Shown here piece after piece: positions 1 to 58,980 of a DNA stretch of 64,000 bases (the stretch's first letter is position 1; every line of letters begins with the position of its first letter). The stretch comes from Styela clava. Lineage: Eukaryota. The position numbers and the translations under genes are program-made. The notes beneath the pieces are model-generated. The model was not told where the DNA came from. It ran no database searches and worked only from the letters and a program-made list of their open reading frames with translations. Location: the NCBI RefSeq assembly GCF_964204865.1, contig NC_135253.1, positions 23,312,001 to 23,376,000 of the forward strand. Direction: 5' to 3'.

Positions 1-660
1 TGTCAACACCGCCGAGTCAGCCGCAACTCAAACAAACAAGGCAATCTTCCAGACTCAAACAGTCATCGACGATTGGAAACACCCCGTTTCATCCTACATC
101 CAAAGGCAACCCTTATGTAAAAGTGATGGTGCACAACATCCAGCCACCGGAATTAACAACATCTTCCGTCTTCTCCACTGCACCTGATGAAATATCCTCC
201 GCACCGGCTAATCTGGAATACAACAAATCAAAATCCAAAACCGAGGACTTACCTGCCAAAAATCTTGACAATTCGGATTATACTATTAAAAGAAGCCGTG
301 AAGAAACGTCATCAGACTCTTCATTTTCAACCACTTTAGAATTTAGACTTGTTGGCAAAAAGAAAAAATAGTTATAAGTTAATTCGGACCCCACAAATCA
401 AAATTCTGTAATCTGGACATTTAATTCGGCCTTTAAACATCGAGCGTAAAACAAACTGCCCAGTTGATGGCATAAAACTCAACTTGATAATACCATCCCA
501 CTTATAGCGGATGTGATGAATGGAAGACTACCTCCTCATGTGGTATATAAAATGGTGATCTCTATGGCAAAGAGAAGGGATCCATATAACTTCCGTCGGC
601 ATAGTCTGGGTATGAAGGCAATTGGGCTGGATTCCAGACTTTGTCGTTCTGATCCGTTTG

Positions 661-697
<37 letters not shown>
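1..697 (+). mobile_element. N1 ORF1-only non-autonomous non-LTR retrotransposon, 3' part (5' end outside window)
   Basis: ORF1 C-terminus and 3' UTR ending TCTGATCCGT; poly(A) 661-697 joined to the SL-gamma intron start GTAAGCTAGAGCCC at 698; matches the full copies downstream. Confidence 0.93.
3..371 (+). CDS. N1 ORF1 C-terminal fragment (partial)
   Basis: Same frame and C-terminus (...TTLEFRLVGKKKK*) as complete N1 ORF1 copies. Confidence 0.9.
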   Translation, partial: STPPSQPQLKQTRQSSRLKQSSTIGNTPFHPTSKGNPYVKVMVHNIQPPELTTSSVFSTAPDEISSAPANLEYNKSKSKTEDLPAKNLDNSDYTIKRSREETSSDSSFSTTLEFRLVGKKKK

Positions 698-701
<4 letters not shown>

Positions 702-1297
702 GCTAGAGCCCGAGCTATTGCTCGTTATTTTATACTGCACATTCCAGATCGAAGTGGTTCGCGCTAACTCCTTCGTGACTTCCTATTCTCGCTAGTACGA
801 GACTTCTCGCGAAGTGAACGAGATAACAACGCGACGTGATACATCCTTTGTTGTCGCCGACTGACTTCTGCTCCCTTAGATTGTTGTCTTACATACATAC
901 ATGTCTTGTTGGAATAGATTGTGCAACCGAATGGGCTACAAACCAGTGACTATCATTATTCGCTGTATAATTAAGGTAAGTTCTGGAGCCGCGGCTCGTT
1001 ATTTAATATCGCACTCTTCGGTTGGAAGAAAACGCGTTCATTTTGTCCACGTTAACCCTTTCGTGACTTGACCTGTCAAAAAACCTTTCCGTGGGACCAA
1101 CGAGTTAACCCGCGCAGGTGCACTTCGTTTGATGGTTGCCGACATCGCGGCGAGTCAGGTTTCTGCGTTACTCGCTGTGTATGTCCAGACTGCTCGTCCA
1201 AGAACTTCAAATCTTGTGAGCATAGACTGTGCAGCCGAATGAGTCTCAAAGCAATGGCTATCATTATTGCTGTTTTGATTAAGGTAAGCTAGAGCCC
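698..1297 (+). repeat. SL RNA gene array segment (gamma intron, alpha gene, beta promoter with gamma-type exon)
   Basis: Matches the 840-bp trimer seen at 7558-8397 and elsewhere. Confidence 0.92.
952..997 (+). ncRNA. SL RNA gene, variant alpha
   Basis: Exon ATCATTATTCGCTGTATAATTAAG, donor GTAAG at 976, AGTTCTGG resembling the tunicate Sm-like AGCUUUGG, hairpin GAGCCGCGGCTC; 3' end approximate. Confidence 0.8.
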
Positions 1298-3222: not shown

Positions 3223-6200
3223 ATGGATACTTTGAGTTTAGTTTCACTCAATGTTAACGGACTGAACTCAAATAGACACAGGTTAGGCCTCTGGATACGG
3301 AGACACCAACCTGGAATAATTTCCTTGCAACAAGTACACCGTTGCAAAAAAGACGAGATTGATTCCTGGGCAGCCGACCTGGGATACACCGCACACCTCA
3401 ATACCATCCACCATGAAGTCACCTCGATGAAATATTTCAGAGCTGGGACTGGAATTCTAGTTAAAAATAACATCCCCTGTACCATTCTATCGTACAAGGT
3501 TTTAATTCCATACAGGCTCGGCCGTCTGGACTTTTTTTTCAATAGTAGCATTACATGCTTAATGAATGCTTATGTTCCTTCGGTTCGGGGCTGTACTCAG
3601 ACTGACTTCATGGTGAGGATGTGCGGTGTGTTTCAGACCCTAGACCCCCTGGACCCACTTATAATTTTAGGGGATTTTAATGCCGTCTTGGATGAGCGTG
3701 ATGTTCTAATTAAACAGAACTTCGGGCTCACCAAGGCGGAAAAAATACTTGGATCCTCTTTAAAATCTCTTGGTATGATTGATATCTTCCGCCAAAAACA
3801 TCCGGCTGGTCAGGTATATACCTGCAAAGTAGATACACAGGCGCGTAGGATTGATCGAATTTATATCTCCGATCACTACGCGGCCTGTGTGAAAGATATC
3901 TATCATATAATAAATACAGCTTCAGATCACACCCTTGCTCCAGCCCTAGTCTTGAAATCCACCTTGAAAAAGGTGGATGGAAAGGCTAGACCGAAATCTT
4001 CAACGAAGATTAGATGGGGCAAGGGTGCCTGGAGAAATAACACCTCTTTATATAGTGATCCAGAATATCGGGAAATAATAATTAATAGTTATAAAAATCT
4101 TGTTCACCGCATGGAAGAATTTTCATATATTCAAGATTGGTGGGATTTCACTAAAAATAGTATTAAAAAGAGTAGCATTGCTTTTTCCATCTATAAAGCA
4201 GATTTACATAGAAAGAAAAAGGACCATCTGGACTTTTTAATTAGAGATGGACAACATCATGCGGAAATATTAAATTTAAGAAAGGAACTTCTTCTTCACG
4301 AGTCAAAAAAATTAGAATTTATCAAATTAAAAGCACGTATTCAAGGGATGGAAGAGGGTGAAGAGCCCACCAAAATCTTCTATCAGAAACTTAAAAAAAG
4401 AGATCAGGACACCATAATTACACAACTTAAGGATAAATTCGGACAAATTAAAGAAAAACCGGAGGAAATAATTAGTATAGTCCATGACTTTTATAAGGAT
4501 CTCTGGGGAACCACATCAGATATTGATGTGGCAACTCAGGATGAACTTATAAAAGTCATGGAAACCACTCAGTTATCGAGTGATGATAACGGCCTAATTG
4601 AAAATGGAACTACTGAGGAAGAAGTCTTTTCTATAATAAAAAATATGGACAATGGCAAGTCGCCGGGTCTCGACGGCTTGTCTAAGGAATTTTACTTAGC
4701 GTTCTGGACCCTAATCAAAAAAGAACTCATAATTATAATTAATAACGTTTTATTTTCTGGCATACTGCCAGCATCATCAAAAGTAGCAAGAGTTAAACTA
4801 ATTTATAAGAAATCCGACGCTTTAGATTTGAAAAATTGGCGTCCGATTTCAAATCTAAACGTCGATTATAAAATCATCACAAAACTTCTTTCTAGGCGCC
4901 TTTTAAATTCCTTCTCTGGCATAATTAGTCCGACCCAGAAAAGTACCATTCTGGGTCGGTCTATCTTTGATGTGCATTATAATATCACAAGTGCACTCAA
5001 TTATGCCAAATACACTAATAGTCCGTATTTCATTGTTTCCATTGATAATCTCAAGGCGTTTGACATGGTTAATCATAATTATCTTTTGAGACTTCTCGAA
5101 AGCATTAACCTATGTCCAAGCGCCTTGAGATTGATAAAATCCATTTACACCGGCATTACCAGCATCATTGAGGTAAATGGGGCCTTCACCAAAAAAATTA
5201 ACATACTGAGAGGCATCCGTCAAGGGTGTCCTCTTAGTATGTTACTCTACACCATCAATGTGGAGCCCCTCAGCCGATGTGTAATCAATAATAAATTAAT
5301 AAAAGGTATTCGTATTGGTAATTTCACCCACAAATTGGATCAGTATGCGGACGACGCAACTTTTGTTGTGTCGGACGCATACTCGATTGATGCTATTTTT
5401 AATAACTTGGAGCTCTTTCGTCTAGCCACAGGGCAGCGGATCAACAGAGAAAAAACCTCCATCCTCTGTACTAATGATAGGGCGAAGGAGATTCTATCTT
5501 TTTTCCCCTATCATAGATACATAAAGGACCATATTAAAATCCTTGGAATCTACTTCGGTGAAAACCAAATTAATATAACTTGGAGCGAGAAGGTCTCCAA
5601 GATCGAACAAATAATTAATTTTAATCGGTCTAGATCCCTATCCTGGTACGGCAAGATCTTGGTTATCAATTCCTTGATCTTGTCTCAGGTTATTTTTAGC
5701 GCGAGGTCGGTCCCCATACCACCTCCTGTCATAAAATATATTGATCGCAAGATCTTCTCTTACCTCTGGATCTCTGAGCCTATGGAAGTATTGGGCCGGC
5801 GGATCCTCCGGAACGGTAAATCTATAGGTGGAATGGGTGTTCCCTGTCTTAACACCAAGATAGTTGCTTGCCAGGCTGAACGTTTCCAACAACTGGCCTC
5901 TCTTGTTAATCCCACACAATTGTGGCATAGAGAGGCCCAGTTCAGCCTTGGCAGTAAAATAATCCAGGTTAATCCTGGTTTGTTTAGCAACTCGATACCC
6001 CATTCCATCACCGTTCCGGAATCATGGCTGAAAGCCTTCAACACATTTCGTGTTTTGGGGGCTAAAGGCCATGATTGGGATTCTGCCGGTCTAGCTTCCA
6101 TATATAGGACCCTCATGAGTGAAAGAGAAGAAACTCCTCCATCTAATATTAACTGGGAGCGTGTCCACCTTTTGGACCGCTCCCTCAGGATTCATTTTAG

Positions 6201-6726: not shown

Positions 6727-7495
6727 GTCTCGCGTGCCAATTATTATATTATCTAAATAATAGTATTGGGTGTCATAACAACCTGTCCTCATCTCGATTG
6801 CTACCTAGTAACTCTATTACTTTGATAATAAGATCACCAGTTGAAAATAACTAGGTGTAATATAGTTACCATTAACATTAGGCAAACAAATAGTTAATAA
6901 AACGCCACGTACACCTATCTACCTGGCAACCTTTATTATTATTTAATTTATACTCTTATTTATTTTTGTTATCTTCTTCTCTCTTTTATAGCCCTTTCCT
7001 CTCCATCATTTTCTTTCTAACTCTTTTCTTCGTCAATCTGACTCTTTTTCTTCCATTTCTTACCTGCCTGGCCAAGACGGAATACTCGCCACTAGAGGGT
7101 TCAATGAGTGTGCATCAGGGTGCATTTCTCCGAACCCTCCCATGTGGCGGGAAATGTTTCGTCGAGGCCAGGCGTTCTGTTAATCTTTACCTTTTATTTT
7201 TCAGAAAAAGAAAGACCATCTAAAAGCCTCCCCTGCAACAAGTAAGTATAAAAAAGTAAGTATCGGTGGGTTGAGGCCTACTTAAAAAAAAAAAAAAAAA
7301 AAAGTAAGCTAGCGCCCGAGCTGCGGTTCGGTATTTTTTATTGCATTTTCCATACTCCAATTCGTAGAATATTTCAATTCGTTCGTCCTAACCCTCTCTT
7401 ATCTTTTGGCTTTGCGCGAGACACACCGCGGGCGGGCCTCGTTTGTTGTCGCCGACTTCTGCTTCTCGTTTTAGTATTCATTCGTACGCTTTGGC

Positions 7496-8458: not shown

Positions 8459-9937
8459 ATGAACTACGCCGAAGCCGCCTCAACAACGCCTACACCTACA
8501 AGCGAAGAAACGACTGCACCGACTACACGACCTCGCACTCTGTTCCTGACAACCACCAAAGACCTGGACTTCCCTCGACTGTTCGACATCCTGAAGACCG
8601 ACTCAGCGTCCCGCAACTATGTCGACAACATCACGGGACTGTTCGAGGGAAGGAAAGGTCAGTGGATTTGTACTTTTGCCGCCACCGACGAACCCAACTC
8701 TAGCTGTCGCGAGCAATTTATGCACGACACAAAGGGTGAAATAAGAGTTTCAGACGGTACTATTACGGTATCGCTGCCAACCGAAGCACCTGTCCGAATA
8801 TCCATTCGAGGGATACCGGGTGAAACTTCCTACAGCAAGGCCGTGTCGACAATCGAACGACTGCAGTGCGGAAAAGTCCGGAATGCCACCAGAAACTGGT
8901 ACAGAGGTACGTCCATTTATAACGGATACACTTCCTTTTTTATTGAAAATTTTAAAAAGGACAGGTTACCAGATTACTTGGTCATCGACGGGAAAAGCTG
9001 CAAAACTTACCTGCCCAGGGAATTATACGTGCCAACCTGTGGTAGGTGTTTGAAATCCGGTCACAACTTCACCGAATGCGAAAGCGAACCAGTCTGTCGC
9101 TACTGCAAACAACTGGGCCATCTTTTAAAAGAGTGTCCATCCAGAAGGAAAGAATTTCCATCAATTTCCGGATCTACATGGACCTTTCCAAGACGTCGAA
9201 AACAGCAATCAGAAAACCCACCTTTTTCGGAACAACCAAGTAACCAAAATGCTTCACAACCTGCAACAGTATCGGGTTTACAAAATGCTTCACAACCTGG
9301 ACTAATTTCGGATTTACAAATTGCTACACAACCTGGACTAATTTCGGATTTACAAAACAACCAAAATGCCGTACAACCTACAAAACCGGATATACCAAAC
9401 GATCAAATGGATTTACAACCTGAATCGACCACTCTTACTCCGCATGACAACAGGATTGATCCAACCTCGAATGTGATCGAATTTTCCTCTTCAACCGAAT
9501 CAACCGACTTGAAAGAAATCAGCAACTGGTCGGAGTGCGAGGATGTGGGAAGCGTTATAAGCCCTCTGTCAACACCGCCGAGTCAGCCGCAACTCAAACA
9601 AACAAGGCAATCTTCCAGACTCAAACAGTCATCGACGATTGGAAACACCCCGTTTCATCCTACATCCAAAGGCAACCCTTATGTAAAAGTGATGGTGCAC
9701 AACATCCAGCCACCGGACTTAACAACATCTTCCGTCTTCTCCACTGCACCAGATGAAATATCCTCCGCACCGGCTAATCTGGAATACAACAAATCAAAAT
9801 CCAAAACCGTGGACTTACCTGCCAAAAATCTTGACAATTCGGATTATACTATTAAAAGAAGCCGTGAAGAAACGTCATCAGACTCGTCATTTTCAACCAC
9901 TTTAGAATTTAGACTTGTTGGCAAAAAGAAAAAATAG
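8459..9937 (+). CDS. N1 ORF1 (492 aa), zinc-knuckle protein homologous to B1/B2 ORF1
   Basis: CGRCLKSGHNFTEC, CRYCKQLGHLLKEC; shares RPRTLFL, STIGNTPFH and NWSECED with B1. Confidence 0.93.
   Translation: MNYAEAASTTPTPTSEETTAPTTRPRTLFLTTTKDLDFPRLFDILKTDSASRNYVDNITGLFEGRKGQWICTFAATDEPNSSCREQFMHDTKGEIRVSDGTITVSLPTEAPVRISIRGIPGETSYSKAVSTIERLQCGKVRNATRNWYRGTSIYNGYTSFFIENFKKDRLPDYLVIDGKSCKTYLPRELYVPTCGRCLKSGHNFTECESEPVCRYCKQLGHLLKECPSRRKEFPSISGSTWTFPRRRKQQSENPPFSEQPSNQNASQPATVSGLQNASQPGLISDLQIATQPGLISDLQNNQNAVQPTKPDIPNDQMDLQPESTTLTPHDNRIDPTSNVIEFSSSTESTDLKEISNWSECEDVGSVISPLSTPPSQPQLKQTRQSSRLKQSSTIGNTPFHPTSKGNPYVKVMVHNIQPPDLTTSSVFSTAPDEISSAPANLEYNKSKSKTVDLPAKNLDNSDYTIKRSREETSSDSSFSTTLEFRLVGKKKK
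9245..9360 (+). repeat. 36-bp coding minisatellite (QNASQPGLISDL-like)
   Basis: Three units here; copy number differs among N1 copies. Confidence 0.85.
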
Positions 9938-10221
9938 TTATAAGTTAATTCGGACCCCACAAATCAAAATTCTGTAATCTGGACATTTAATTCGGCCTTT
10001 AAACATCGAGCGTAAAACAAACTGCCCAGTTGATGGCATAAAACTCAACTTGATAATACCATCCTACTTATAGCGGGTGTGATGAATGGAAGACTACCTC
10101 TTCATGTGGTATATAAAATGGTGATCTCTATGGCAAAGAGAAGGGATCCATATAACTTCCTTCGGCATAGTCTGGGTATGAAGGCAATTGGGCTGGATTC
10201 CAGACTTTGTCGTTCTGATCC

Positions 10222-10259
<38 letters not shown>

Positions 10260-11096: not shown

Positions 11097-12884
11097 GCAA
11101 CCCCTCACCGGGTTAGGCCCTCGACAGCAACGAAGCAAGAAGAAAAGGAAGAAGAAGATGAACTACGCCGAAGCCGCCTCAACAACGCCTACACCTACAA
11201 GCGAAGAATCGACTGCACCGACTACACGACCTCGCACTCTGTTCCTGACAACCACCAAAGACCTGGACTTCCCTCGACTGTTCGACATCCTCAAGACCGA
11301 CTCAGCATCCCAAAACTACGTCGACAACATCACGGGACTGTTCGAGGGAAGAAAAGGTCAGTGGATATGTACTTTTGCCGCCACCGACGACCCCAACTCT
11401 AGCTGTCGCGAGCAATTCTTGCACGACACAAAGGGTGAAATAAGAGTTTTAGACGGTGCTATTACGGTATCCATGCCAACCGAAGCACCAGTCCGAATAT
11501 CCATTCGAGGGATACCGGGTGAAACTTCCTACAGCAAGGCCGTGTCGACAATCGAACGACTGCAGTGCGGAAAAGTCCGGAATGCCACCAGAAACTGGTA
11601 TAGAGGTACGTCCATTTATAACGGATACACTTCCTTTTTTATTGAAAATTTTAAAAAGGACAGGTTACCAGATTACTTGGTCATCGACGGGAAAAGCTGC
11701 AAAACTTACCTGCCCAGGGAATTATACGTGCCAACCTGTGGTAGGTGTTTGAAATCCGGTCACAACTTCACCGAATGCGAAAGCGAACCAGTCTGTCGCT
11801 ACTGCAAACAACTGGGCCATCTTTTAAAAGAGTGTCCATCCAGAAGGAAAGAATTTCCATCAATTTCCGGATCTACATGGACCTTTCCAAGACGTCAAAA
11901 ACAGCAATCAGAAAACCCACCTTTTTCGGAACAACCAAGTAACCAAAATGCTTCACATCCTGCAACAGTATCGGATTTACAAAATGCTACACAGCCTGGA
12001 CTAATTTCGGATTTACAAAACAACCAAAATGCCGTACAACCTACAAAACCGGATATACCAAACGATCAAATGGATTTACAACCTGAATCGACCACTCTTA
12101 CTCCGCATGACAACAGGATTGATCCAACCTCGAATGTGATCGAATTTTCCTCTTCCACCGAATCAACCGACTTAAAAGAAATCAGCAACTGGTCGGAGTG
12201 CGAGAATGTGGGAAGTGTTATAAGCCCTCTGTCAACACCGCCGAGTCAGCCGCAACTCAAACAAACAAGGCAATCTTCCAGACTCAAACAGTCATCGACG
12301 ATTGGAAACACCCCGTTTCATCCTACATCCAAAGGCAACCCTTATGTAAAAGTGATGGTGCACAACATCCAGCCACCGGACTTAACAACATCTTCCGTCT
12401 TCTCCACTGCACCTGATGAAATATCCTCCGCACCGGCTAATCTGGAATACAACAAATCAAAATCCAAAACCGTGGACTTACCTGCCGCAAATCTTGACAA
12501 TTCGGATTATGCTATTAAAAGAAGCCGTGAAGACACGTCATCGGACTCGTCATTTTCAACCACTTTAGAATTTAGACTTGTTGGCAAAAAGAAAAAATAG
12601 TTGTAAGTTAATTCGGACCCCACAAATCAAAATTCTGTAATCTGGACATTTAATTCGGCCTTTAAACATCGAGCGTAAAACAAACTGCCCAGTTGATGGC
12701 ATAAAACTCAACTTGATAATACCATCCTACTTATAGCGGGTGTGATGAATGGAAGACTACCTCTTCATGTGGTATATAAAATGGTGATCTCTATGGCAAA
12801 GAGAAGGGATCCAAATAACTTCCGTCGGCATAGTCTGGGTATGAAGGCAATTGGGCTGGATTCCAGACTTTGTCGTTCTGATCC

Positions 12885-12931
<47 letters not shown>
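11097..12931 (+). mobile_element. N1 ORF1-only element, full length
   Basis: Between gamma exon and gamma intron; poly(A) tail. Confidence 0.93.
11158..12600 (+). CDS. N1 ORF1 (480 aa)
   Basis: Intact ORF with two CCHC knuckles. Confidence 0.93.
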   Translation: MNYAEAASTTPTPTSEESTAPTTRPRTLFLTTTKDLDFPRLFDILKTDSASQNYVDNITGLFEGRKGQWICTFAATDDPNSSCREQFLHDTKGEIRVLDGAITVSMPTEAPVRISIRGIPGETSYSKAVSTIERLQCGKVRNATRNWYRGTSIYNGYTSFFIENFKKDRLPDYLVIDGKSCKTYLPRELYVPTCGRCLKSGHNFTECESEPVCRYCKQLGHLLKECPSRRKEFPSISGSTWTFPRRQKQQSENPPFSEQPSNQNASHPATVSDLQNATQPGLISDLQNNQNAVQPTKPDIPNDQMDLQPESTTLTPHDNRIDPTSNVIEFSSSTESTDLKEISNWSECENVGSVISPLSTPPSQPQLKQTRQSSRLKQSSTIGNTPFHPTSKGNPYVKVMVHNIQPPDLTTSSVFSTAPDEISSAPANLEYNKSKSKTVDLPAANLDNSDYAIKRSREDTSSDSSFSTTLEFRLVGKKKK

Positions 12932-13771: not shown

Positions 13772-15652
13772 GCAACCCCTCACCGGGTTAGGCCCTCGAC
13801 AGCAACGAAGCAAGAAGAAAAGGAAGAAGAAGATGAACTACGCCGAAGCCGCCTCAACAACGCCCACACCTACAAGCGAAGAAACGACTGCACCGACTAC
13901 ACGACCTCGCACTCTGTTCCTGACAACCACCAAAGACCTGGACTTCCCTCGACTGTTCGACATCCTCAAGACCGACTCAGCGTCCCGAAACTACGTCGAC
14001 AACATCACGGGACTGTTCGAGGGAAGAAAAGGTCAGTGGATTTGTACTTTTGCCGCCACCGACGAACCCAACTCTAGCTGTCGCGAGCAATTTATGCACG
14101 ACACAAAGGGTGAAATAAGAGTTTCAGACGGTACTATTACGGTATCGCTGCCTACCGAAGCACCAATCCGAATATCCATTCGGGGGATACCAGGTGAAAC
14201 TTCCTACAACAAGGCCGTGTCGACAATCGAACGACTGCAGTGCGGAAAAGTCCGGAATGCCACCAGAAACTGGTACAGAGGTACGTCCATTTATAACGGA
14301 TACACTTCCTTTTTTATTGAAAATTTTAAAAAGGACAGGTTACCAGATTACTTGGTCATTGACGGGAAAAGCTGCAAAACTTACCTGCCCAGGGAATTAT
14401 ATGTGCCAACCTGTGGTAGGTGTTTGAAATCCGGTCACAACTTTACCGAATGCGAAAGCGAACCAGTCTGTCGCTACTGCAAACAACCGGGCCATCTTTT
14501 AAAAGAGTGTCCATCCAGAAGGAAAGAATTTCCATCAATTTCCGGCTCTACATGGACCCTTCCACGACGTCGAAAACAGCTATCAGAAAACCCACCTCAT
14601 TTGGAACAACCAAGTAATCAAAATGCTTCACAACCTGCAACAGTATCGGATTTACAAAATGCCTCACAACCTGGACTAATTTCGGATTTACAAAGCGCTT
14701 CACAACCTGGACTAAATTCGGATTTACAAAATGCTACACAACCTGGACAAGTTTCGGAATTACAAGTCAACCAAAATGCCGTACAACCTACACTACAAAC
14801 TACAAAACCGGATATACCAGTCGATCAAATGGATTTACAACCTGAATCGACCATTCTTGGACATACTCCGCATGACAACAGGATTGATCCAACCTCGGAT
14901 GTAATCGAATTTTCTTCCTCCACCGATTCAACCGACTTAAAAGAAGTTAGTAATTGGTCGGAGTGCGAGGATGTGGGAAGCGTTATAAGCCCTCTGTTAA
15001 CACCGCCGAGTCAGCCGCAACTCAAACAAACAAGGCAATCGTCAAGACTAAAACAATCATCGACGATTGGAAACACCCCCTTTCATCCTCCATCGAAAGG
15101 CAACCCTTATGTAAGAGTGATGGTGCACAACATCCAGCCACCGGACTTAACAACATCTTCCGTTTTTTCTACTACACCTGATGAAATATCTTCCGCACCG
15201 GCTAATCTAGAATACAACCAACCAAAATCCAAAACCGTGGACTTACCTGAACCAAATCTCGACAATTCGGATTATGCTAATAAAAGAAGCCGTGAAGAAA
15301 CGTCATCAGACTCGTCATTTTCGACCACTTTGGAATTTAGACTTGTTGGCAAAAAGAAAAAATAGTGGTAAGTTAATTCGGACCCCACAAATCAAAATTC
15401 TGTAACCTGGACATTTAATTCGGCCTTTAAACATCGAGCGTAAAACAAACTGCCCAGTTGATGGCATAAAACTCAACTTGATAATACCATCCCACTTATA
15501 GCGGATGTGATGAATGGAAGACTACCTCTTCATGTGGTATATAAAATGGTGATCTCTATGGCAAAGAGAAGGGATCCATATAACTTCCGTCGGCATAGTC
15601 TGGGTATGAGGGCAATTGGGCTGGATTCCAGACTTTGTCGTTCTAATCCGTA

Positions 15653-17081: not shown

Positions 17082-17133
17082 ATCATTATTCGCTATTTGA
17101 TTAAGGTAAGCTAGCGCCCGAGCTGCGGTTCGG
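17082..17133 (+). ncRNA. SL RNA gene, beta
   Basis: Exon, donor 17106, hairpin. Confidence 0.8.
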
Positions 17134-17298
17134 TATTTTTTATTGCATTTTCCATACTCCAATTCGTAGAATATTTCAATTCGTTCGTCCTAACCCTCTC
17201 TTATCTTTTGGCTTTGCGCGAGACACACCGCGGGCGGGCCTCGTTTGTTGTCGCCGACTTCTGCTTCTCGTTTTAGTATTCATTCGTACGCTTTGGCA

Positions 17299-19739
17299 CT
17301 TTGTGTTGTATTGTTTGACTTCTATAGTCTTGGGATTTTATTGCTTCTGAACTACCATAAATGGTAGTTTAAACAGGTAGTTCTTTTGGTATAATAACCT
17401 CCTCTTGTAACAGCAAATAGTTTTTTTCAAAGCCTCTCGTCACTGACTCGCGTCAGAGTTGTTTTCATCGGCAGACAGTTTCCTGTTGTAACATCCGCCA
17501 TGACTACGACACAGCCTTCAACATCAAGGCCTCTTTTTTCAAGCGTCGCTGCCTCAGTTCCTAAGGTAGCCGATGTGAGATGTGTGGACGTCAGCAGAGG
17601 CGAGTCGATCGATGTCGAAACAACTAAAGACATCTCGACCGTTTTGGAATTTTTTAATTTATTTAACACCGTGAATAAACTACGTCCTTTTAGAACCCTA
17701 GTCGGAGGAATTTTTCATATCCGCCAGGGTACTTGGAACTTGACTTTCCAACCCACCGACGGACAACCAACACGGGATAAGTTTCTTTCAAGTGTTGGTG
17801 ATAAACTTGACACCCCACTAGGTGTAATTAAATTTTCCTTGCCTCGTGGTCCAGGGACTCGCATTAGCGTGCGTGGTATTCCCACTGAAGCCACAGTCGA
17901 GCAAATAACAACACTGCTCAACTCTTTTGACTGTGGCAAGGTGCGTCGTGTTTTTAAAATATACCTGCGTAACACCAAGGTGTATAACGGCTACGTACAA
18001 GCCATCATTGATGACTTCGAGAAGTCTAAATTTCCCGATTTCGTCAATGTTGGTGGACTGCGTTGCAAAACATACCTACCTCCGGAACTCTATACCAAAA
18101 CCTGCTTGAATTGCTTTCAAGCAGGTCATCTGGCCAGAGAATGTGTGATGCCCCCGTCCTGCCGTCTTTGCAAGAAATCCGGCCATGTGCAGCGAGGGTG
18201 CACTGACTTCCCTGTAATAACACCTGCAGTGGAACAAAGTAGCAAGCCTCAACTCCAGGTCAACTCTCCTGCCAAGGTTGCTGCAAAGACGACAGGTAGA
18301 TACAGCTTCACCAATATACCATCTGTAGCTGTATCTTCACAGGATCAGCTGAAAAGGCAAAATATTTATAATAAAATGAAGGAAAAACCTGCTGCGGCTG
18401 ATAACTCCAAGTCTCCCAGTCGGGTTAAGGTGGATATACACCCTATTCCGGCTGAAGATCATGATATCTCAGATTCTTTAGAATCTGAAAAATCGAACCT
18501 GGAAAATGAATCAGATGCAGTTGTAGGGTGTAGTAAAATAAATAATCTAGGTAGGAACCCGGAAGATCTTGATGAAGACTGTGAAAAAATTGTAGAACTG
18601 GATAGCCCTCTGGGAGAAGACTATCACAACATAGTCAGACTCTCAGAGGGGTCGGATGAAGAACTTGCGATGTTTCGAAAGAAACTTCGCAGTCACACGA
18701 AGATCAAGGAACCGGGTCCAGAATGGCAGTGTTCCGAAATCGAATGCAGTCCTGTCAAGAGAGACGAAAAAAGAGGTCGGGGGAGCTCTTCATCGGACGC
18801 CTCAATTGTTCTCCCACCTAATAAATCCCGGATTTTTTCCAAATTGCGAGTTGCTAAAAAACTTTAAAAATAATTATTTGATTGGCTTCAATTTCTTTTC
18901 CTACAGTGGATTGGATAATATATATGACAGGCACTTATTTGTGGCAGTATTTTGTGCCCGAAATGTATAGGACCATTTATATTATCATTTGCAATAATTG
19001 AACATCAACTGCGGAGTACTTTCCCATTTTCCGAACTAGTATTTTTTTTTCTCTTTCTCTCTCTATCATCTCGTAACTATGGATCAATATTAAAGATGCC
19101 AAGGCAGCAGCAAGTGACAATAAAATAAAAAATGGTGGAAAGAAGAACTGGGATCATTTAGCGCCCATTTACATCCTAAATCTAAAACAACTACATTGCT
19201 GTAGTATATAACAACTGAATACCTTCATAACGATCTATACCCTGCTCCAGTGAACTATTTGATTCTCAATCATGGGCACTAAATCTGCCTATAATAAATA
19301 TAACAACTTATATTTGTAGAAATATACTAGAACAAATAGCTAAAAAACGCCATATACACCAGATTACTGGCTCTCTTATATTTTTGGTGAAGGTTTCTTC
19401 GTTTATCTCTTATTAATAATTTATTCTTTTTATGTTTTTTTAACTTCTTTGTCCTTCCGTATACTGATTTTCTACTCTTTTTCTGTTATATCTCCTAAAT
19501 TTCTTTTCTATTAGAGGAGACGGACATCACGTGACAGGGAGAGTTGATATGAGTGTGCACCAAGGTGCATTTCTCCCAACTCTCTTCTGTCACGGAAGTG
19601 TTCGTCGAATCTACCCTCTGTTTTCTCCTGGTGTTATTATTTTGCCTTTTTACAGGTATTTACAGGTAACAACATCTACAAGCCTCCCCTGCAATACGTA
19701 AGTATAAAAACAAGGTGAGTATCGGTGGGTCGAGGCCTA

Positions 19740-19786
<47 letters not shown>
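17299..19786 (+). mobile_element. N2 ORF1-only non-autonomous element of lineage A (probably 5'-truncated)
   Basis: A-like ORF1, no ORF2, A-like 3' terminus (TATCGGTGGGTCGAGGCCTACT), poly(A) then GTAAGCT. Confidence 0.88.
17500..18867 (+). CDS. N2 ORF1 (455 aa), homologue of A1/A2 ORF1
   Basis: PLFSSVAASVPKVA, CLNCFQAGHLAREC, CRLCKKSGHVQRGC, KEPGP, RDEKRGR. Confidence 0.92.
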   Translation: MTTTQPSTSRPLFSSVAASVPKVADVRCVDVSRGESIDVETTKDISTVLEFFNLFNTVNKLRPFRTLVGGIFHIRQGTWNLTFQPTDGQPTRDKFLSSVGDKLDTPLGVIKFSLPRGPGTRISVRGIPTEATVEQITTLLNSFDCGKVRRVFKIYLRNTKVYNGYVQAIIDDFEKSKFPDFVNVGGLRCKTYLPPELYTKTCLNCFQAGHLARECVMPPSCRLCKKSGHVQRGCTDFPVITPAVEQSSKPQLQVNSPAKVAAKTTGRYSFTNIPSVAVSSQDQLKRQNIYNKMKEKPAAADNSKSPSRVKVDIHPIPAEDHDISDSLESEKSNLENESDAVVGCSKINNLGRNPEDLDEDCEKIVELDSPLGEDYHNIVRLSEGSDEELAMFRKKLRSHTKIKEPGPEWQCSEIECSPVKRDEKRGRGSSSSDASIVLPPNKSRIFSKLRVAKKL

Positions 19787-25228: not shown

Positions 25229-25327
25229 CACGATGCTTGAAAAGAACTTTACCACCCAAAGAGGTCGCCCTACCTACATTCACCATAAAAGGGAGCTTAA
25301 ACCTGGTAATACCATCCTCAAATTTTC

Positions 25328-25665
25328 GCGGAAATGATGAATCGGAAGCTTCACGGTGGATGTCATGCTGGATACGTGTTACACGCCTCGCAGTATGTAC
25401 GGAAGCCGGGGGTGGCGGAAGTTGAGCTGTGTTAAACACGGCATTGACGGAAGCCCTGGGCAGACGTCCTGCTATTTGGCACATAGCATGTTACTGATGC
25501 TCGGGGCAGAAGTCTTTGCCTTGCAATACATAGCCGATACGGAAGCCGCCTTAATGTATGACCGCTGCTTACGCAGTGGCATGCTTATGTAGCGTAATAC
25601 CGATATGACTCGGATATGACGTGTCTTTGAGACACTGATCCGAGATTGGAAAAACTCTGATCCGT
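25328..25665 (+). other. Box C/D (kink-turn)-closed structured 3' UTR domain of B1
   Basis: GCGGA-A-ATGATGA (25328-25340) ... CTGA-TCCGT (25657-25665); internal K-turn hairpin 25609-25644. Confidence 0.7.
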
Positions 25666-26545: not shown

Positions 26546-28423
26546 GTAACCCCTCACCGGGTTAGGCCCTCGACAGCAACGAAGCAAGAAGAAAAGGAGG
26601 AAGAAGATGAACTACGCCGAAGCCGCCTCAACAACGCCTACACCTACAAGCGAAGAAACGACTGCACCGACTACACGACCTCGCACTCTGTTCCTGACAA
26701 CCACCAAAGACCTGGACTTCCCTCGACTGTTCGACATCCTGAAGACCGACTCAGCGTCCCGCAACTATGTCGACAACATCACGGGACTGTTCGAGGGAAG
26801 AAAAGGTCAGTGGATTTGTACTTTTGCCGCCACCGACGAACCCAACTCTAGCTGTCGCGAGCAATTTATGCACGACACAAAGGGTGAAATAAGAGTTTCA
26901 GACGGTACTATTACGGTTTCGCTGCCTACCGAAGCACCAATCCGAATATCCATTCGGGGGATACCGGGTGAAACTTCCTACAACAAGGCCGTGTCGACAA
27001 TCGAACGACTGCAGTGCGGAAAAGTCCGGAATGCCACCAGAAACTGGTACAGAGGTACGTCCATTTATAACGGATACACTTCCTTTTTTATTGAAAATTT
27101 TAAAAAGGACAGGTTACCAGATTACTTGGTCATTGACGGGAAAAGCTGCAAAACTTACCTGCCCAGGGAATTATATGTGCCAACCTGTGGTAGGTGTTTG
27201 AAATCCGGTCACAACTTCACCGAATGCGAAAGCGAACCAGTCTGTCGCTACTGCAAACAACCGGGCCATCTTTTAAAAGAGTGTCCATCCAGAAGGAAAG
27301 AATTTCCATCAATTTCCGGCTCTACATGGACCCTTCCACGACGTAGAAAACAGCTATCAGAAAACCCACCTCATTTGGAACAACCAAGTAATCAAAATGC
27401 TTCACAACCTGCAACAGTATCGGATTTACAAAATGCCTCACAACCTGGACTAATTTCGGATTTACAAAGCGCTTCACAACCTGGACTAAATTCGGATTTA
27501 CAAAATGCTACACAACCTGGACAGGTTTCGGAATTACAAGTCAACCAAAATGCCGTACAACCTACACTACAAACTACAAAACCGGATATACCAGTCGATC
27601 AAATGGATTTACAACCTGAATCGACCATTCTTGGACATACTCCGCATGACAACAGGATTGATCCAACCTCGGATGTAATCGAATTTTCTTCCTCCACCGA
27701 TTCAACCGACTTAAAAGAAATTAGTAATTGGTCGGAGTGCGAGGATGTGGGAAGCGTTATAAGCCCTCTGTTAACACCGCCGAGTCAGCCGCAACTCAAA
27801 CAAACAAGGCAATCGTCAAGACTAAAACAATCATCGACGATTGGAAACACCCCTTTTCATCCTCCATCGAAAGGCAACCCTTATGTAAGAGTGATGGTGC
27901 ACAACATCCAGCCACCGGACTTAACAACATCTTCCGTTTTTTCTACTACACCTGATGAAATATCTTCCGCACCGGCTAATCTAGAATACAACCAATCAAA
28001 ATCCAAAACCGTGGACTTACCTGAACCAAATCTCGACAATTCGGATTATGCTAATAAAAGAAGCCGTGAAGAAACGTCATCAGACTCGTCATTTTCGACC
28101 ACTTTGGAATTTAGACTTGTTGGCAAAAAGAAAAAATAGTGGTAAGTTAATTCGGACCCCACAAATCAAAATTCTGTAACCTGGACATTTAATTCGGCCT
28201 TTAAACATCGACCGTAAAACAAACTGCCCAGTTGATGGCATAAAACTCAACTTGATAATACCATCCCACTTATAGCGGATGTGATGAATGGAAGACTACC
28301 CCTTCATGTGGTATATAAAATGGTGATCTCTATGGCAAAGAGAAGGGATCCATATAACTTCCGTCGGCATAGTCTGGGTATGAAGGCAATTGGGCTGGAT
28401 TCCAGACTTTGTCGTTCTGATCC

Positions 28424-28495
<72 letters not shown>
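26546..28495 (+). mobile_element. N1 ORF1-only element, full length (long allele)
   Basis: Between gamma exon and gamma intron; poly(A) of about 70 nt. Confidence 0.93.
26607..28139 (+). CDS. N1 ORF1 (510 aa)
   Basis: Intact; nearly identical to the 13833 copy. Confidence 0.93.
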   Translation: MNYAEAASTTPTPTSEETTAPTTRPRTLFLTTTKDLDFPRLFDILKTDSASRNYVDNITGLFEGRKGQWICTFAATDEPNSSCREQFMHDTKGEIRVSDGTITVSLPTEAPIRISIRGIPGETSYNKAVSTIERLQCGKVRNATRNWYRGTSIYNGYTSFFIENFKKDRLPDYLVIDGKSCKTYLPRELYVPTCGRCLKSGHNFTECESEPVCRYCKQPGHLLKECPSRRKEFPSISGSTWTLPRRRKQLSENPPHLEQPSNQNASQPATVSDLQNASQPGLISDLQSASQPGLNSDLQNATQPGQVSELQVNQNAVQPTLQTTKPDIPVDQMDLQPESTILGHTPHDNRIDPTSDVIEFSSSTDSTDLKEISNWSECEDVGSVISPLLTPPSQPQLKQTRQSSRLKQSSTIGNTPFHPPSKGNPYVRVMVHNIQPPDLTTSSVFSTTPDEISSAPANLEYNQSKSKTVDLPEPNLDNSDYANKRSREETSSDSSFSTTLEFRLVGKKKK

Positions 28496-30319: not shown

Positions 30320-30528
30320 CCTGGGATCAGAGACGTCAACACTTGCAATTCTGGTAGGAAGAAAGGAAAGATATGTGAGTAGAAATTGATTTTTCACTCG
30401 ATAAATCTAAACCAACACGTTCTAGTGTTGTATTTTCTAAAATTATATAATAATGGATAGATCACGAGTCATAAATAATTTTACCACAACCAGGAGCTTA
30501 CATCTTTCGGCCCCCTATATAAATCAAT

Positions 30529-33996: not shown

Positions 33997-34131
33997 AACT
34001 GATAACTTTCTTCGTTTTAACAAAGTAAAATTACGAACAAACTCAACAACCATAAATGGTAGCCCAATAATAACGACAAAACCCGCAGAAAAACACGATT
34101 TTAACCTCGATAATACCATCCACAACTTTCC

Positions 34132-34470
34132 ACGGAAATGATGAATCGGAAGCTTCACGGTGGATGTCAGTCTGTGTGCGTGTTACACGTCCACACAGGT
34201 TGTACGGAAGCCGGGGGTGGCGGAAGTTGAGCTGTGCTAAGCATGGCATTGACAGAAGCCCTGGGCAGACGTGCTGCTATTTGGCACATAGCATGTACTG
34301 ATGCCCGGGGCCGAAGTCTTTGCCTCGCAATGCATAGTGAATACCAAAGCCGCCTTATCGATATGACCGCTGCTTACGCAGTGGCATGCTTATGGAGCGT
34401 AATACCGATATGACTCGGATATGACGTGTCTTTATGACACTGATCCGAGACTGGAAAAACTCTGATCCGT
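34132..34470 (+). other. Box C/D (kink-turn)-closed structured 3' UTR domain of B2
   Basis: ACGGA-A-ATGATGA (34132-34144) ... CTGA-TCCGT (34462-34470). Confidence 0.7.
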
Positions 34471-46858: not shown

Positions 46859-47447
46859 ATCATCTCGCGTGCCTGATAACTGCTGAGGTATAATGAACCA
46901 ACATCTATAACCTACCTCCATTGCTACATAATGCTGTAGTACTCCTCCAATACTTATCCCAACCTAAATATTGTTAGTATAATAAAATCTGGGGTAACAC
47001 AGGAACATGATAATTAATAAAGCGAATTATAACGCCACGCACCTAACTGGCTACTTTATTATCATTTAATTTATGATCTCACTTCTTTTTTATTATTAAT
47101 TTCTTCACCCTTCTTTTATAACCCTTTCTCTCCATCATTTTCTTTCTAATCCCTTTACTTCGTCATTCTGACTCTTTCTCTTCTATTTCCTTTTTGCCTG
47201 GCCAAAACGAAATACTCGCCACTAGAGGGTTCAATGAGTGTGCATCAGGGTGCATTTCTCCGAACCCTCACATGTGGCGGGAAATATTTTGTGGCGGTCA
47301 GGCGTTCTGTTAACTGTCTCCTATATTTTTCAGAAAAAGAAAGACCATCTACAAGCCTCCCCTGCAACAAGTAAGTATTAAAAGGTAAGTACCGGTGGGT
47401 TGAGGCCTACCATAAAAAAAAAAAAAAAAAAAAAAATAAAAATAAAA

Positions 47448-48318: not shown

Positions 48319-50131
48319 GCAACCCCTCACCGGGTTAGGCCCTCGACAGCAACGAAGCAAGAAGAAAAAGAAGAAGAAGATGAACTACGCCGAAGCCGCC
48401 TCAACAACGCCTACACCTACAAGCGAAGAAACGACTGCACCGACTACACGACCTCGCACTCTGTTCCTGACAACCACCAAAGACCTGGACTTCCCTCGAC
48501 TGTTCGACATCCTGAAGACCGACTCAGCGTCCCGCAACTATGTCGACAACATCACGGGACTGTTCGAGGGAAGGAAAGGTCAGTGGATTTGTACTTTTGC
48601 CGCCACCGACGAACCCAACTCTAGCTGTCGCGAGCAATTTATGCACGACACAAAGGGTGAAATAAGAGTTTCAGACGGTACTATCACGGTATCGCTGCCT
48701 ACCGAAGCACCTGTCCGAATATCCATTCGAGGGATACCGGGTGAAACTTCCTACAGCAAGGCCGTGTCGACAATCGAACGACTGCAGTGCGGAAAAGTCC
48801 GGAATGCCACCAGAAACTGGTACAGAGGTACGTCCATTTATAACGGATACACTTCCTTTTTTATTGAAAATTTTAAAAAGGACAGGTTACCAGATTACTT
48901 GGTCATTGACGGGAAAAGCTGCAAAACTTACCTGCCCAGGGAATTATATGTGCCAACCTGTGGTAGGTGTTTGAAATCCGGTCACAACTTCACCGAATGC
49001 GAAAGCGAACCAGTCTGTCGCTACTGCAAACAACCGGGCCATCTTTTAAAAGAGTGTCCATCCAGAAGGAAAGAATTTCCATCAATTTCTGGCTCTACAT
49101 GGACCCTTCCACGACGTCGAAAACAGCTATCAGAAAACCCACCTCATTTGGAACAACCAAGTAATCAAAATGCTTCACAACCTGCAACAGTATCGGATTT
49201 ACAAAATGCTACACAGCCTGGACTAATTTCGGATTTACAAAACAACCAAAATGCCGTACAACCTACAAAACCGGATATACCAAACGATCAAATGGATTTA
49301 CAACCTGAATCGACCACTCTTACTCCGCATGACAACAGGATTGATCCAACCTCGAATGTAATCGAATTTTCCTCTTCCACCGAATCAACCGACTTGAAAG
49401 AAATCAGCAACTGGTCGGAGTGCGAGGATGTGGGAAACGTTATAAGCCCTCTGTCAACACCGCCGAGTCAGCCGCAACTCAAACAAACAAGGCAATCTTC
49501 CAGACTCAAACAGTCATCGACGATTGGAAACACCCCGTTTCATCCTACATCCAAAGGCAACCCTTATGTAAAAGTGATGGTGCACAACATCCAGCCACCG
49601 GACTTAACAACATCTTCCGTCTTCTCCACTGCACCTGATGAAATATCCTCCGCACCGGCTAATCTAGAATACAACAAATCAAAAGCCAAAACCATGGACT
49701 TACCTGCCACAAATCTTGACAATTCGGATTATGCTATCAAAAGAAGCCGTGAAGAAACGTCATCAGACTCGTCATTTTCAACCACTTTAGAATTTAGACT
49801 TGTTGGCAAAAAGAAAAAATAGTAAGTTAATTCGGACCCCACAAATCAAAATTCTGTAATCTGGACATTTAATTCGGCCTTTAAAACATCGAGCGTAAAA
49901 CAAACTGCCCAGTTGATGGCATAAAACTCAACTTGATAATACCATCCTACTTATAGCGGGTGTGATGAATGGAAGACTACCTCTTCATGTGGTATATAAA
50001 ATGGTGATCTCTGTGGCAAAGAGAAGGGATCCATATAACTTCCGTCGGCATAGTCTGGGTATGAAGGCAATTGGGCTGGATTCCAGACTTTGTCGTTCTG
50101 ATCCGTGACAAGATAAAAAAAAAAAAAAAAA
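48319..50131 (+). mobile_element. N1 ORF1-only element, full length
   Basis: After the gamma exon; tail followed by GTAAGCTAGAGCCC and an A1 copy. Confidence 0.93.
48380..49822 (+). CDS. N1 ORF1 (480 aa)
   Basis: Intact ORF with two CCHC knuckles. Confidence 0.93.
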   Translation: MNYAEAASTTPTPTSEETTAPTTRPRTLFLTTTKDLDFPRLFDILKTDSASRNYVDNITGLFEGRKGQWICTFAATDEPNSSCREQFMHDTKGEIRVSDGTITVSLPTEAPVRISIRGIPGETSYSKAVSTIERLQCGKVRNATRNWYRGTSIYNGYTSFFIENFKKDRLPDYLVIDGKSCKTYLPRELYVPTCGRCLKSGHNFTECESEPVCRYCKQPGHLLKECPSRRKEFPSISGSTWTLPRRRKQLSENPPHLEQPSNQNASQPATVSDLQNATQPGLISDLQNNQNAVQPTKPDIPNDQMDLQPESTTLTPHDNRIDPTSNVIEFSSSTESTDLKEISNWSECEDVGNVISPLSTPPSQPQLKQTRQSSRLKQSSTIGNTPFHPTSKGNPYVKVMVHNIQPPDLTTSSVFSTAPDEISSAPANLEYNKSKAKTMDLPATNLDNSDYAIKRSREETSSDSSFSTTLEFRLVGKKKK

Positions 50132-56723: not shown

Positions 56724-56775
56724 ATCATTATTCGCTATTTGATTAAGGTAAGCTAGCGCCCGAGCTGCGGTTCGG
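56724..56775 (+). ncRNA. SL RNA gene, beta
   Basis: Exon, donor 56748, hairpin. Confidence 0.8.
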
Positions 56776-57001
56776 TATTTTTTATTGCATTTTCCATACT
56801 CCAATTCGTAGAATATTTCAATTCGTTCGTCCTAACCCTCTCTTATCTTTTGGCTTTGCGCGAGACACACCGCGGGCGGGCCTCGTTTGTTGTCGCCGAC
56901 TTCTGCTTCTCGTTTTAGTATTCATTCGTACGCTTTGGCATAGATCGTGCAACCGAATGGGCTTCAAAATATTGGAAATCATTATTGCTGTTTTGATTAA
57001 G

Positions 57002-58601
57002 GTAACCCCTCACCGGGTTAGGCCCTCGACAGCAACGAAGCAAGAAGAAAAGGAAGAAGAAGAATATGAACTACGCCGAAGCCGCCTCGACAACGCCTAC
57101 ACCTACAAGCGAAGAAACGACTGCACCGACTACACGACCTCGCACTCTGTTCCTGACAACCACCAAAGACCTGGACTTCCCTCGACTGTTCGACATCCTC
57201 AAGACCGATTCAGCGTCCCGAAACTACGTCGACAACATCACGGGACTGTTCGAGGGAAGAAAAGGTCAGTGGATATGTACTTTTGCCGCCACCGACGACC
57301 CCAACTCTAGCTGTCGCGAGAAATTCTTGCACGACACAAAGGGTGAAATAAGAGTTTCAGACGGTGCTATTACGGTATCGCTGCCAACCGAAGCACCAGT
57401 CCGAATATCCATTCGAGGGATACCGGGTGAAACTTCCTACAGCAAGGCCGTGTCGACAATCGAACGACTGCAGTGCGGAAAAGTCCGGAATGCCACCAGA
57501 AACTGGTACAGAGGTACGTCCATTTATAACGGATACACTTCCTTTTTTATTGAAAATTTTAAAAAGGACAGGTTACCAGATTACTTGGTCATCGACGGGA
57601 AAAGCTGCAAAACTTACCTGCCCAGGGAATTATACGTGCCAACCTGTGGTAGGTGTTTGAAATCCGGTCACAACTTCACCGAATGCGAAAGCGAACCAGT
57701 CTGTCGCTACTGCAAACAACTGGGCCATCTTTTAAAAGAGTGTCCATCCAGAAGGAAAGAATTTCCATCAATTTCCGGATCTACATGGACCTTACCAAGA
57801 CGTCAAAAACAGCAATCAGAAAACCCACCTTTTTCGGAACAACCAAGTAACCAAAATGCTTCACAACCTGCAACAGTATCGGATTTACAAAATGCTACAC
57901 AGCCTGGACTAATTTCGGATTTACAAAACAACCAAAATGCCGTACAACCTACAAAACCGGATATACCAAACGATCAAATGGATTTACAACCTGAATCGAC
58001 CACTCTTACTCCGCATGACAACAGGATTGATCCAACCTCGAATGTAATCGAATTTTCCTCTTCCACCGAATCAACCGACCTAAAAGAAATCAGCAACTGG
58101 TCGGAGTGCGAGGATGTGGGAAGCGTTATAAGCCCTCTGTCAACACCGCCGAGTCAGCCGCAACTCAAACAAACAAGGCAATCTTCCAGACTCAAACAGT
58201 CATCGACGATTGGAAACACCCCGTTTCATCCTACATCCAAAGGCAACCCTTATGTAAAAGTGATGGTGCACAACATCCAGCCACCGGAATTAACAACATC
58301 TTCCGTCTTCTCCACTGCACCTGATGAAATATCCTCCGCACCGGCTAATCTGGAATACAACAAATCAAAATCCAAAACCGAGGACTTACCTGCCAAAAAT
58401 CTTGACAATTCGGATTATACTATTAAAAGAAGCCGTGAAGAAACGTCATCAGACTCTTCATTTTCAACCACTTTAGAATTTAGACTTGTTGGCAAAAAGA
58501 AAAAATAGTTATAAGTTAATTCGGACCCCACAAATCAAAATTCTGTAATCTGGACATTTAATTCGGCCTTTAAACATCGAGCGTAAGACAAACTGCCCAG
58601 T
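57002..58601 (+). mobile_element. N1 element lacking its distal 3' UTR and poly(A)
   Basis: 3' UTR breaks at ...CTGCCCAGT and joins TTGATTAAG-GTAAGCTAGAGCCC + A1. Confidence 0.9.
57066..58508 (+). CDS. N1 ORF1 (480 aa)
   Basis: Intact ORF. Confidence 0.93.
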   Translation: MNYAEAASTTPTPTSEETTAPTTRPRTLFLTTTKDLDFPRLFDILKTDSASRNYVDNITGLFEGRKGQWICTFAATDDPNSSCREKFLHDTKGEIRVSDGAITVSLPTEAPVRISIRGIPGETSYSKAVSTIERLQCGKVRNATRNWYRGTSIYNGYTSFFIENFKKDRLPDYLVIDGKSCKTYLPRELYVPTCGRCLKSGHNFTECESEPVCRYCKQLGHLLKECPSRRKEFPSISGSTWTLPRRQKQQSENPPFSEQPSNQNASQPATVSDLQNATQPGLISDLQNNQNAVQPTKPDIPNDQMDLQPESTTLTPHDNRIDPTSNVIEFSSSTESTDLKEISNWSECEDVGSVISPLSTPPSQPQLKQTRQSSRLKQSSTIGNTPFHPTSKGNPYVKVMVHNIQPPELTTSSVFSTAPDEISSAPANLEYNKSKSKTEDLPAKNLDNSDYTIKRSREETSSDSSFSTTLEFRLVGKKKK

Positions 58602-58980
58602 TTGATTAAGGTAAGCTAGAGCCCTTGATCAACAGCACGGAGCGTCTGGTGGTCTTTTCTGCCATTCCGTGGCTTTTGCCAGCCCGCTCCGAACTAGGTG
58701 TATTGGGAGTGGCCTCTCCCCCTTCGGGAATTTCTTAGAGGCCACCCCGGCGTTTCCGTAACGGTTTTTATATAATAAACCGTTACCGCTTTTGTTTGTT
58801 GCTCTGTTAGTTTATAAACTTCTGTTAGTTAATAGCCCCAATTTCTACTACTACCATAATATCTAGCTCGTTTTTATTATCCTTCAGTTAGTTTCTTTGT
58901 AGTAGGTTTCCTTAATAACTCTTAGTTGAATAACATCTGGGGTTCTACATTTCTTCTATAGTTTCTCCGTAAAGTTCTTG

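Follow-up and report, generated by a model that had tools for sequence, protein, structure and literature searches.

The window analysed here, a stretch of 64,000 nt running from 23,312,001 to 23,376,000 on contig C4 of a 377-Mb genome, is an array of SL-RNA-like genes of 280–310 bp each, packed with non-LTR retrotransposons lying head to tail (Table 1). We infer that the array genes are SL RNA genes; their exon is one which we liken to ascidian leaders, and they gave no match in Rfam. SL-like genes occur in four or more arrays, which differ in type (contigs C4, C5, C6 and C8), and large tandem arrays of U3, U2 and U6 genes lie at C2:9.60–9.67 Mb, C6:17.5–17.8 Mb and C1:19.46–19.60 Mb.

The resident elements comprise A elements, B1, B2 and the ORF1-only N1. 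ORF2 specifies an APE endonuclease followed by a reverse transcriptase (RT), and its nearest PDB relative is L1 ORF2p (E 5e-60); this best structural relative, the APE-RT organization and the poly(A) tail place the elements in the L1 clade. A CCHC ORF1 combined with target specificity agrees with the Tx1 group, and in the RT tree, which holds no named Tx1 reference, the named matches lie outside on long branches. The closest proteins outside this genome are 36% identical and came without DNA context. The ORF1 of N1 has a weak CCHC knuckle and 43–45% identity to those of B1 and B2; it also carries a 36-bp in-frame repeat in 2–4 copies (9245–9357 and other N1 copies). A second ORF1-only family, A2 (17106–19786), has a 3' end of the A type.

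Table 1. Positions of the target array, the N1, B1 and B2 modules and their parts within the 64,000-nt window
Feature	Position	Strand	Remarks
N1 copy, 3' part (ORF1-only, non-autonomous non-LTR element)	1..697	+	ORF1 stop 369-371
Conserved leader motif TAATACCATCC	488..498	+	in most families 12-19 nt upstream of C-stem
N1 C-stem 5' strand, bulge and box C	507..519	+	C-stem 5' strand 507-511, 3-nt bulge 512-514, box C 513-519
N1 internal kink-turn-like motif, D'/C' order	554..583	+	GGT GA TCTC ... GAGA AGG GA TCC
Second kink-turn in N1 hairpin	603..640	+	bulge TAT 611-613, GA 614-615, partner GA 630-631, third pair A.G
N1 box D and C-stem 3' strand	649..657	+	box D 649-652, C-stem 3' strand 653-657
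Poly(A) tail of N1 insertion	661..697	+	
SL-RNA-like gene target array	698..1283	+	exon end TTAAG, donor GTAAG, hairpin, Sm-like site
Module, second N1 copy	10073..10223	+	GCGGG (G.U first stem pair)
Module, third N1 copy	12736..12886	+	GCGGG
Module, N1 copy with changed box D	15501..15651	+	box D -> CTAA
snRNA-type PSE in B1 3' UTR	25280..25298	+	46 nt upstream of C-stem; 21.1 bits, window's best score
B1 module	25328..25665	+	box C 25334-25340, long paired interior, hairpin kink-turn 25609-25644, box D 25657-25660
Module, N1 copy	28275..28425	+	intact twin of CTAA copy
PSE in B2 3' UTR	34047..34065	+	83 nt upstream of C-stem; 19.0 bits
B2 module	34132..34470	+	box C 34138-34144, box D 34462-34465
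Module, N1 copy	49956..50106	+	GCGGG

The initial annotation proposed that the 3' end of N1 is closed by a snoRNA-like box C/D kink-turn. The letters it cited are present, GCGGA-T-GTGATGA on the box C side and CTGA-TCCGT, ahead of the A tail, on the box D side, and they give the canonical geometry that had been claimed: a 5-bp C-stem, a 3-nt bulge (UGU), tandem G.A/A.G pairs, and then U.U, G–C and A–U. The kink-turn of N1 is thus confirmed; the annotation had not recorded the two further kink-turns, the snRNA promoter element or the wide distribution in the genome that are described below. The stretch from one strand of the C-stem to the other, here called the module, is present in six N1 copies of the window; three begin with GCGGA (507, 15501 and 28275) and three with GCGGG (10073, 12736 and 49956), the latter keeping the first stem pair as G.U, as had been noted. 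The copy reported to have lost its box D does read CTAA (15643), its near-twin retaining CTGA (28417), and a seventh copy (56748–58602) ends before reaching the module. The only well-aligned parts which N1 shares with the B1 and B2 3' UTRs are TAATACCATCC, box C with its stem, and CTGATCCGT, much as the annotation had it. By chance, 21 of 20,000 resampled 450-nt regions contained a box C forming a stem of 4 bp or longer with the box D flank of N1. The folding free energy of N1 alone is not significant (z -0.11 and -0.93; ViennaRNA, whose model does not include kink-turns). That the motif is under selection and pairs end to end, as had been suggested, finds support in its conservation across families, in covariation, and in module-only copies which begin at the stem.

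Module anatomy was compared in 35 representatives, the counts coming from a motif picker which preset the pattern at several box positions and preferred stems that pair. The interiors are 118–323 nt long and of unrelated types, N1 and B1 modules being 32% identical. The representatives show a C-stem, a 3-nt bulge, tandem G.A/A.G pairs and an NC-stem, with a stem of 4–8 bp in 34 of the 35 and of 2 bp in one; a single representative has a changed box D. The third pair of the terminal motif is U.U in 33/35, and stem II has its G–C pair in all 35, although this pair was partly fixed by the picker. With box C RUGAUGA and box D CUGA, these pairs identify the terminal motif as a box C/D kink-turn. 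The last A of box C is retained in 33 representatives, in five of which it is unable to pair. The outer pair is A–U in 12, G.U in 10, G–C in seven, U–A in two and unpaired in four, and wherever the 3' side is C the opposite base is G. This covariation amounts to a few events, since the seven G–C cases fall in one sub-clade and the picker favoured pairing. Changes on both sides were seen in 19 of 85 pairs of the B-type interior (0/500 shuffles as good; slid controls 3–8) and in 4 of 25 pairs of the N-type interior (16/500 shuffles); the folding free energy of B1 has a z of -5.23. The B-type interior (e.g. 25345–25560) also contains repeated internal loops, GGAA facing GGAA or GAA, with CGGAAG occurring about six times; these are possible tandem G.A motifs or protein sites.

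The terminal motif is accompanied by further kink-turns. A hairpin kink-turn stands within 24 nt upstream of box D in 30 of the 35 representatives, differing in sequence and NC-stem between the B, N and U4-targeting types, and a kink-turn in D'/C' order was found in N1, four N-type relatives and the F10 family; the last base of its bulge is U in the relatives and G in N1. According to PMC4382518, ions by themselves leave the archaeal box C/D k-turn unfolded and L7Ae brings about its folding, from which one would predict that the terminal U.U motif needs protein. By the rule given there, the internal kink-turns, having third pairs C.U, C.C or A.G, are predicted to fold in magnesium without it.

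A genome-wide search with box D plus tail gave 113 forward-strand matches against one for the control, and box C plus stem gave 115, again against one. Among 41 sites picked by box D and tail alone, a strict box C closing a 4–5 bp stem was found in 20, a strict box C with a decayed stem in two and a variant or decayed box C in 10; nine had no box C, four of them being truncated within the module. Picked by box C and stem alone, 15 of 22 sites had an intact box D and tail, and over all loci examined the figure for box C plus stem contexts was 129 of 144. ORF2 C-termini from the loci examined, which are the best-scoring part of the genome's copies and not a census, were clustered at 85% identity into 34 families. 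Both ends of the module occur in 26 of the 34, all L1/Tx1-like elements, so that the boxes prove to be conserved in related families; the families being related, these counts are not independent. Seven families have neither end and together form a single clade (A). This leaves 26 of 27 non-A families with both ends, the remaining one (F30) being cut before box D. In quick trees, for which SH-aLRT is the only support, the A clade is nested among kink-turn families, and the module is therefore apparently ancestral and was replaced once. None of 80 metagenome loci (22–40% identical, most of them without a 3' end) had both the box C word and the tail.

The 3' ends of the A clade (7095–7283, 19540–19745 and 47225–47413; also loci L213, L218, L222 and L284) have a conserved block of their own, in which a hairpin and a pyrimidine tract with CAG at its end are accompanied by CCTCCCCTG and two copies of GTAAGTAT. 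Both copies of GTAAGTAT are perfect complements of the 5' end of host U1. Possibly the block binds U1 and stands in for the C/D module. Beyond these splice-donor words, no antisense pairing between host U1 and the A-clade end was supported.

A word upstream of many modules, and in most of the autonomous families, corresponds to the host snRNA proximal sequence element (PSE). A matrix was built from the host U1, U2, U3 and U4 promoters, where the element lies 55–57 nt before the start; it scored 23.3 bits at 57 nt on the host U8 promoter, which had not been used in training, and gave no match reaching 17 bits when the window was shuffled three times. Among the 35 representatives the distance from PSE to stem is 45–47 nt in 16, 72–83 nt in nine (two of them weak) and 178–237 nt in three; the PSE is missing or weak in seven, including N1, whose best score is 0.3 bits. 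The 72–83 nt class would produce an RNA with a short leader followed by the whole C/D module, in the manner of U3 or U8. For the 45–47 nt class the predicted start falls on the final bases of box C, so that the short RNA of these 16 families would lack box C. One contig end falls exactly at the end of box C (run X10, depth 5, its RNA status being a guess) and is marked by what we take to be the SMART template-switch adapter; as evidence for the start site it is a single weak hint. Modules are covered by contigs of runs guessed to be RNA, such contigs carrying no level, start or strand. Strong PSE matches were also seen in the A2 5' UTR and just upstream of ORF2 in B2 and F21 (17352–17370, 30481–30499, 1524–1542; L107:45), and snRNA promoters may drive ORF transcripts too. 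The leader motif was considered as a partner for the PSE sequence, a pairing which is not conserved.

B1 and B2 modules are 91% identical while their ORF2 C-termini are 51% identical; for F22 and F32 the figures are 93% and 34%, the common sequence running from the PSE onwards. Conversely, F09 and F06 have proteins 71% identical and modules 32% identical. Placing the B-type label on the ORF2 tree needs five changes, four of which are forced. As judged from sequence comparison, modules have been swapped between ORF2 lineages.

Copies consisting of the module only were found as well. Four of these, spread over three loci, start 4, 2, 3 and 3 nt upstream of CGGA and sit straight behind the tail of a different family; microhomology with the A tails makes two of the four start points uncertain by 1–2 bases. 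Their parents, F08 and F13, both belong to the 72–83 nt PSE class. A discrete processed RNA was looked for here, and all four retrocopies keep a poly(A) tail. Five other short tail-joined copies start at -98, +10, +35, +55 and +74. The cluster of starts at the outer edge of the stem may reflect trimming of the RNA to a protein-protected stem, followed by template jumping. At about 3560–3600 on the minus strand of L325, what comes after a module-only copy is a U2 5' fragment and then an ORF1-like frame, an arrangement which suggests a U2-targeting element.

Our preferred reading, to which we assign a probability of roughly 55%, is that these elements end in a conserved, structured, C/D-bounded RNA which binds the host protein 15.5K/Snu13, and that a snoRNP-like coat protects the RNA and holds or routes it in the nucleus. 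The module would fold into the terminal kink-turn and one or two internal ones, and such folding in vivo is very probable. It would recruit host 15.5K/Snu13, and this binding too we regard as probable, if less assured. A full C/D core perhaps assembles at the terminal motif; loading of NOP58, NOP56 and fibrillarin, with trimming to the stem, seems to us an even chance. The coat would protect the element RNA and retain or route it in the nucleus, the protective role, one of three put forward in the initial annotation beside Cajal-body trafficking and recognition by ORF2p, having indirect support. In the PSE families the cassette resembles a U3/U8-type gene and would also yield a short module RNA. 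N1 keeps the module without a PSE, which indicates a need in cis at the level of RNA. In capped U3 precursors the C/D boxes are described as redirecting the RNA from export to Cajal bodies (PMC5519232). Against a snoRNP-like coat, translation requires export of the full-length RNA, which a snoRNP would be expected to oppose.

Insertions occur in SL genes, U4 genes, tRNA genes, at histone start codons and at dispersed sites. The histone sites (L056, L061, L064–L066, L232, L303, and L020 on contig C8, 7.3–8.0 Mb) lie before or at start codons of genes which, from translation, we take to be H3-, H2A- and H1-like. At other loci (L101–L103 and L225–L229), F04 inserts at the 5' stem-loop of U4 genes; its hairpin kink-turn and the U4 kink-turn both contain AATGA(C)GGTTTATCC, an agreement equalled by 3 of 200 shuffles, uncorrected. 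The available target list of PMC8869645 is without histone genes. Clusters of snRNA and histone genes associate with Cajal bodies in human cells, according to PMC2196410. Passage through this body might help the elements reach SL, U4 and histone gene clusters, a suggestion which we make tentatively and which is somewhat doubtful. Trafficking of this kind is plausible and is weakened by the A clade, whose seven families lack the C/D motif yet occupy the same SL genes; the module is thus not needed for SL targeting. That tRNA genes and dispersed sites are invaded too also speaks against a role in targeting.

A reading of wider reach makes the whole radiation a mimic of snoRNA genes, in which an snRNA promoter and a multi-kink-turn C/D RNA engage the host snoRNP, yield a discrete RNA and are traded as a unit, the template being delivered through Cajal bodies to SL, snRNA and histone clusters as telomerase RNA is to telomeres. 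We think this possible and on the whole unlikely.

The main rival to our preferred reading, though less likely again, is that ORF2p (or ORF1p) reads the kink-turns as a stringent 3' signal belonging to the element itself, with host snoRNP proteins unneeded. The CGGA/UCCG stem hardly varies and recurs in the second kink-turn of B-type modules, which exceeds what an L7Ae-type protein would be expected to need and suggests a sequence-specific reader; the non-autonomous N families keep the module, stringent LINEs are known to use structured 3' tails (PMC3747384), and the internal kink-turns should fold protein-free. Against such a reader, modules 91–94% identical are found on ORF2 C-termini only 32–36% identical, whereas the close relatives F09 and F06 carry unrelated ones. 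Furthermore, the conserved letters are those of the snoRNA box consensus, down to an A that is kept where it is unpaired, and neither the PSE nor the stem-trimmed copies would be accounted for.

One might also regard PSE, leader and C/D module as a partly independent small-RNA gene, built in as a SINE-like passenger or a regulator and spreading by joining the 3' ends of other families, any benefit to the carrier being secondary. The host-type PSE at two preferred spacings, the module-only copies on foreign tails, the four or more forced changes of label and the common sequence of F22 and F32 that starts at the PSE would all follow. We nevertheless consider it improbable: the module is present in every non-A family examined, relatives devoid of it being confined to the A clade; in N1 and other ORF1-only families the module is retained without the PSE; and no free-standing tail-less gene copy that might be the progenitor was seen among the loci fetched, which were the best matches only.

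Very improbable, in our opinion, is the proposal that box C is conserved as DNA, being the start site of the PSE-driven transcript, and that the match to box D is incidental. The 16 representatives in which the PSE spacing would put the start at the very end of box C, and the contig end there, agree with it, but conservation of box C is no lower in families whose PSE is 72–237 nt off or missing, the outer pair covaries across 130–330 nt with a downstream base, and host start sites have no such motif.

We can scarcely credit a captured 2'-O-methylation guide snoRNA or scaRNA that is still guiding, for although boxes C and D and, in N types, D'/C'-like boxes stand in snoRNA order, the longest complementary stretch between host 18S, 5.8S and 28S rRNA and the 21 nt that precede box D averages 9.4 nt against 8.9 nt in shuffles, that to SL and to the major snRNAs of U1–U6 other than U5 does not exceed 10 nt, the would-be guide regions vary between families or are self-paired, no Rfam family is matched, and similarity to host U3 or U8 goes no further than short words. 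The rRNA complements fall at scattered sites, the longest in N1 being 8 nt. In Rfam nothing reached gathering score for the window or either module (best E 5.4, N1). The leader motif matches 28S 2064–2078 over 8–13 nt with one G.U in several families, which is within the range of shuffles (mean 9.5 against 9.1), and no pre-rRNA pairing leader of the U3/U8 type was found. An origin from host U3, U8 or U4 was rejected on finding short word matches only. A hammerhead ribozyme (CUGANGA core with GAAA), suggested by UGAUGA, was set aside, a purine preceding UGAUGA in the box C matches and no Rfam ribozyme being matched. On its sequence, the module is best described as an snoRNP-type end module and not as a member of a guide snoRNA family.

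The target choice of non-LTR elements is usually ascribed to their endonuclease. What shields their RNA, what retains it in the nucleus or brings it back there, and what takes it to the target are open questions, for which a C/D module that is compact and swappable offers a direct test through two-base changes and a commercial-grade protein assay. It is also a candidate stabilising 3' part for retrotransposon-based gene insertion tools, and the embedded PSE provides a case of a LINE with an internal snRNA promoter. Among the top-ranked titles from searches of the open-access literature, none reported a LINE whose 3' UTR carries a C/D kink-turn or a PSE; a retrotransposon 3' end of the box C/D kink-turn type would seem to have no precedent in the literature searched.

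The nearest known elements are Keno, Kibi, Koshi and Tx1-Mar of the Tx1 group (PMC4494074), which share a CCHC ORF1, an APE and RT ORF2, poly(A) and multicopy small-RNA gene targets with those described here. Unlike the present elements, they are not credited in the available text of that paper with a 3' UTR C/D box, kink-turn or PSE, and relative to what it describes, a single radiation here spans SL, U4, tRNA and histone start codon sites. Trypanosomatid Pr77 links a non-LTR element to SNAPc through SNAP50 (PMC8190864), which may be compared with the PSE; it lies at the 5' end, binds weakly and, as far as that account goes, has neither a copy of the PSE nor a C/D module. Among host genes, U3 and U8 resemble the module in having an upstream PSE, a short leader, a terminal C/D kink-turn and a second, internal one, and the PSE sequences of the elements match the host's own U3 and U8 promoters. 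The homology is, however, limited to the boxes; the module has no demonstrated rRNA arm, ends in poly(A) and lies inside a retrotransposon transcript.

snoRNA-type sequence moved by LINE machinery has been described in the platypus snoRTE (PMC4233971) and other snoRNA retroposons (PMC1687206). Those, as presented there, are host snoRNAs (H/ACA head and RTE tail) which are passively copied, whereas the C/D module belongs to the 3' UTR of autonomous elements. In sno-lncRNAs and SPA lncRNAs (PMC8162545), a longer or polyadenylated RNA has its end shielded by an snoRNP structure, as is proposed for the module; they are described as having whole host snoRNAs at their ends, while here one C/D motif encloses the last 120–330 nt before the tail. 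A further parallel is the telomerase RNA of Trypanosoma brucei, likewise an RT template RNA with a 3' C/D domain, which co-purifies with NOP58, NOP56 and fibrillarin according to PMC10061497; protein binding by the module is only predicted, and the telomerase RNA is a host gene where the elements are mobile. If our preferred reading is correct, these retrotransposons would be a mobile-element parallel to an snoRNP-chaperoned telomerase RNA.
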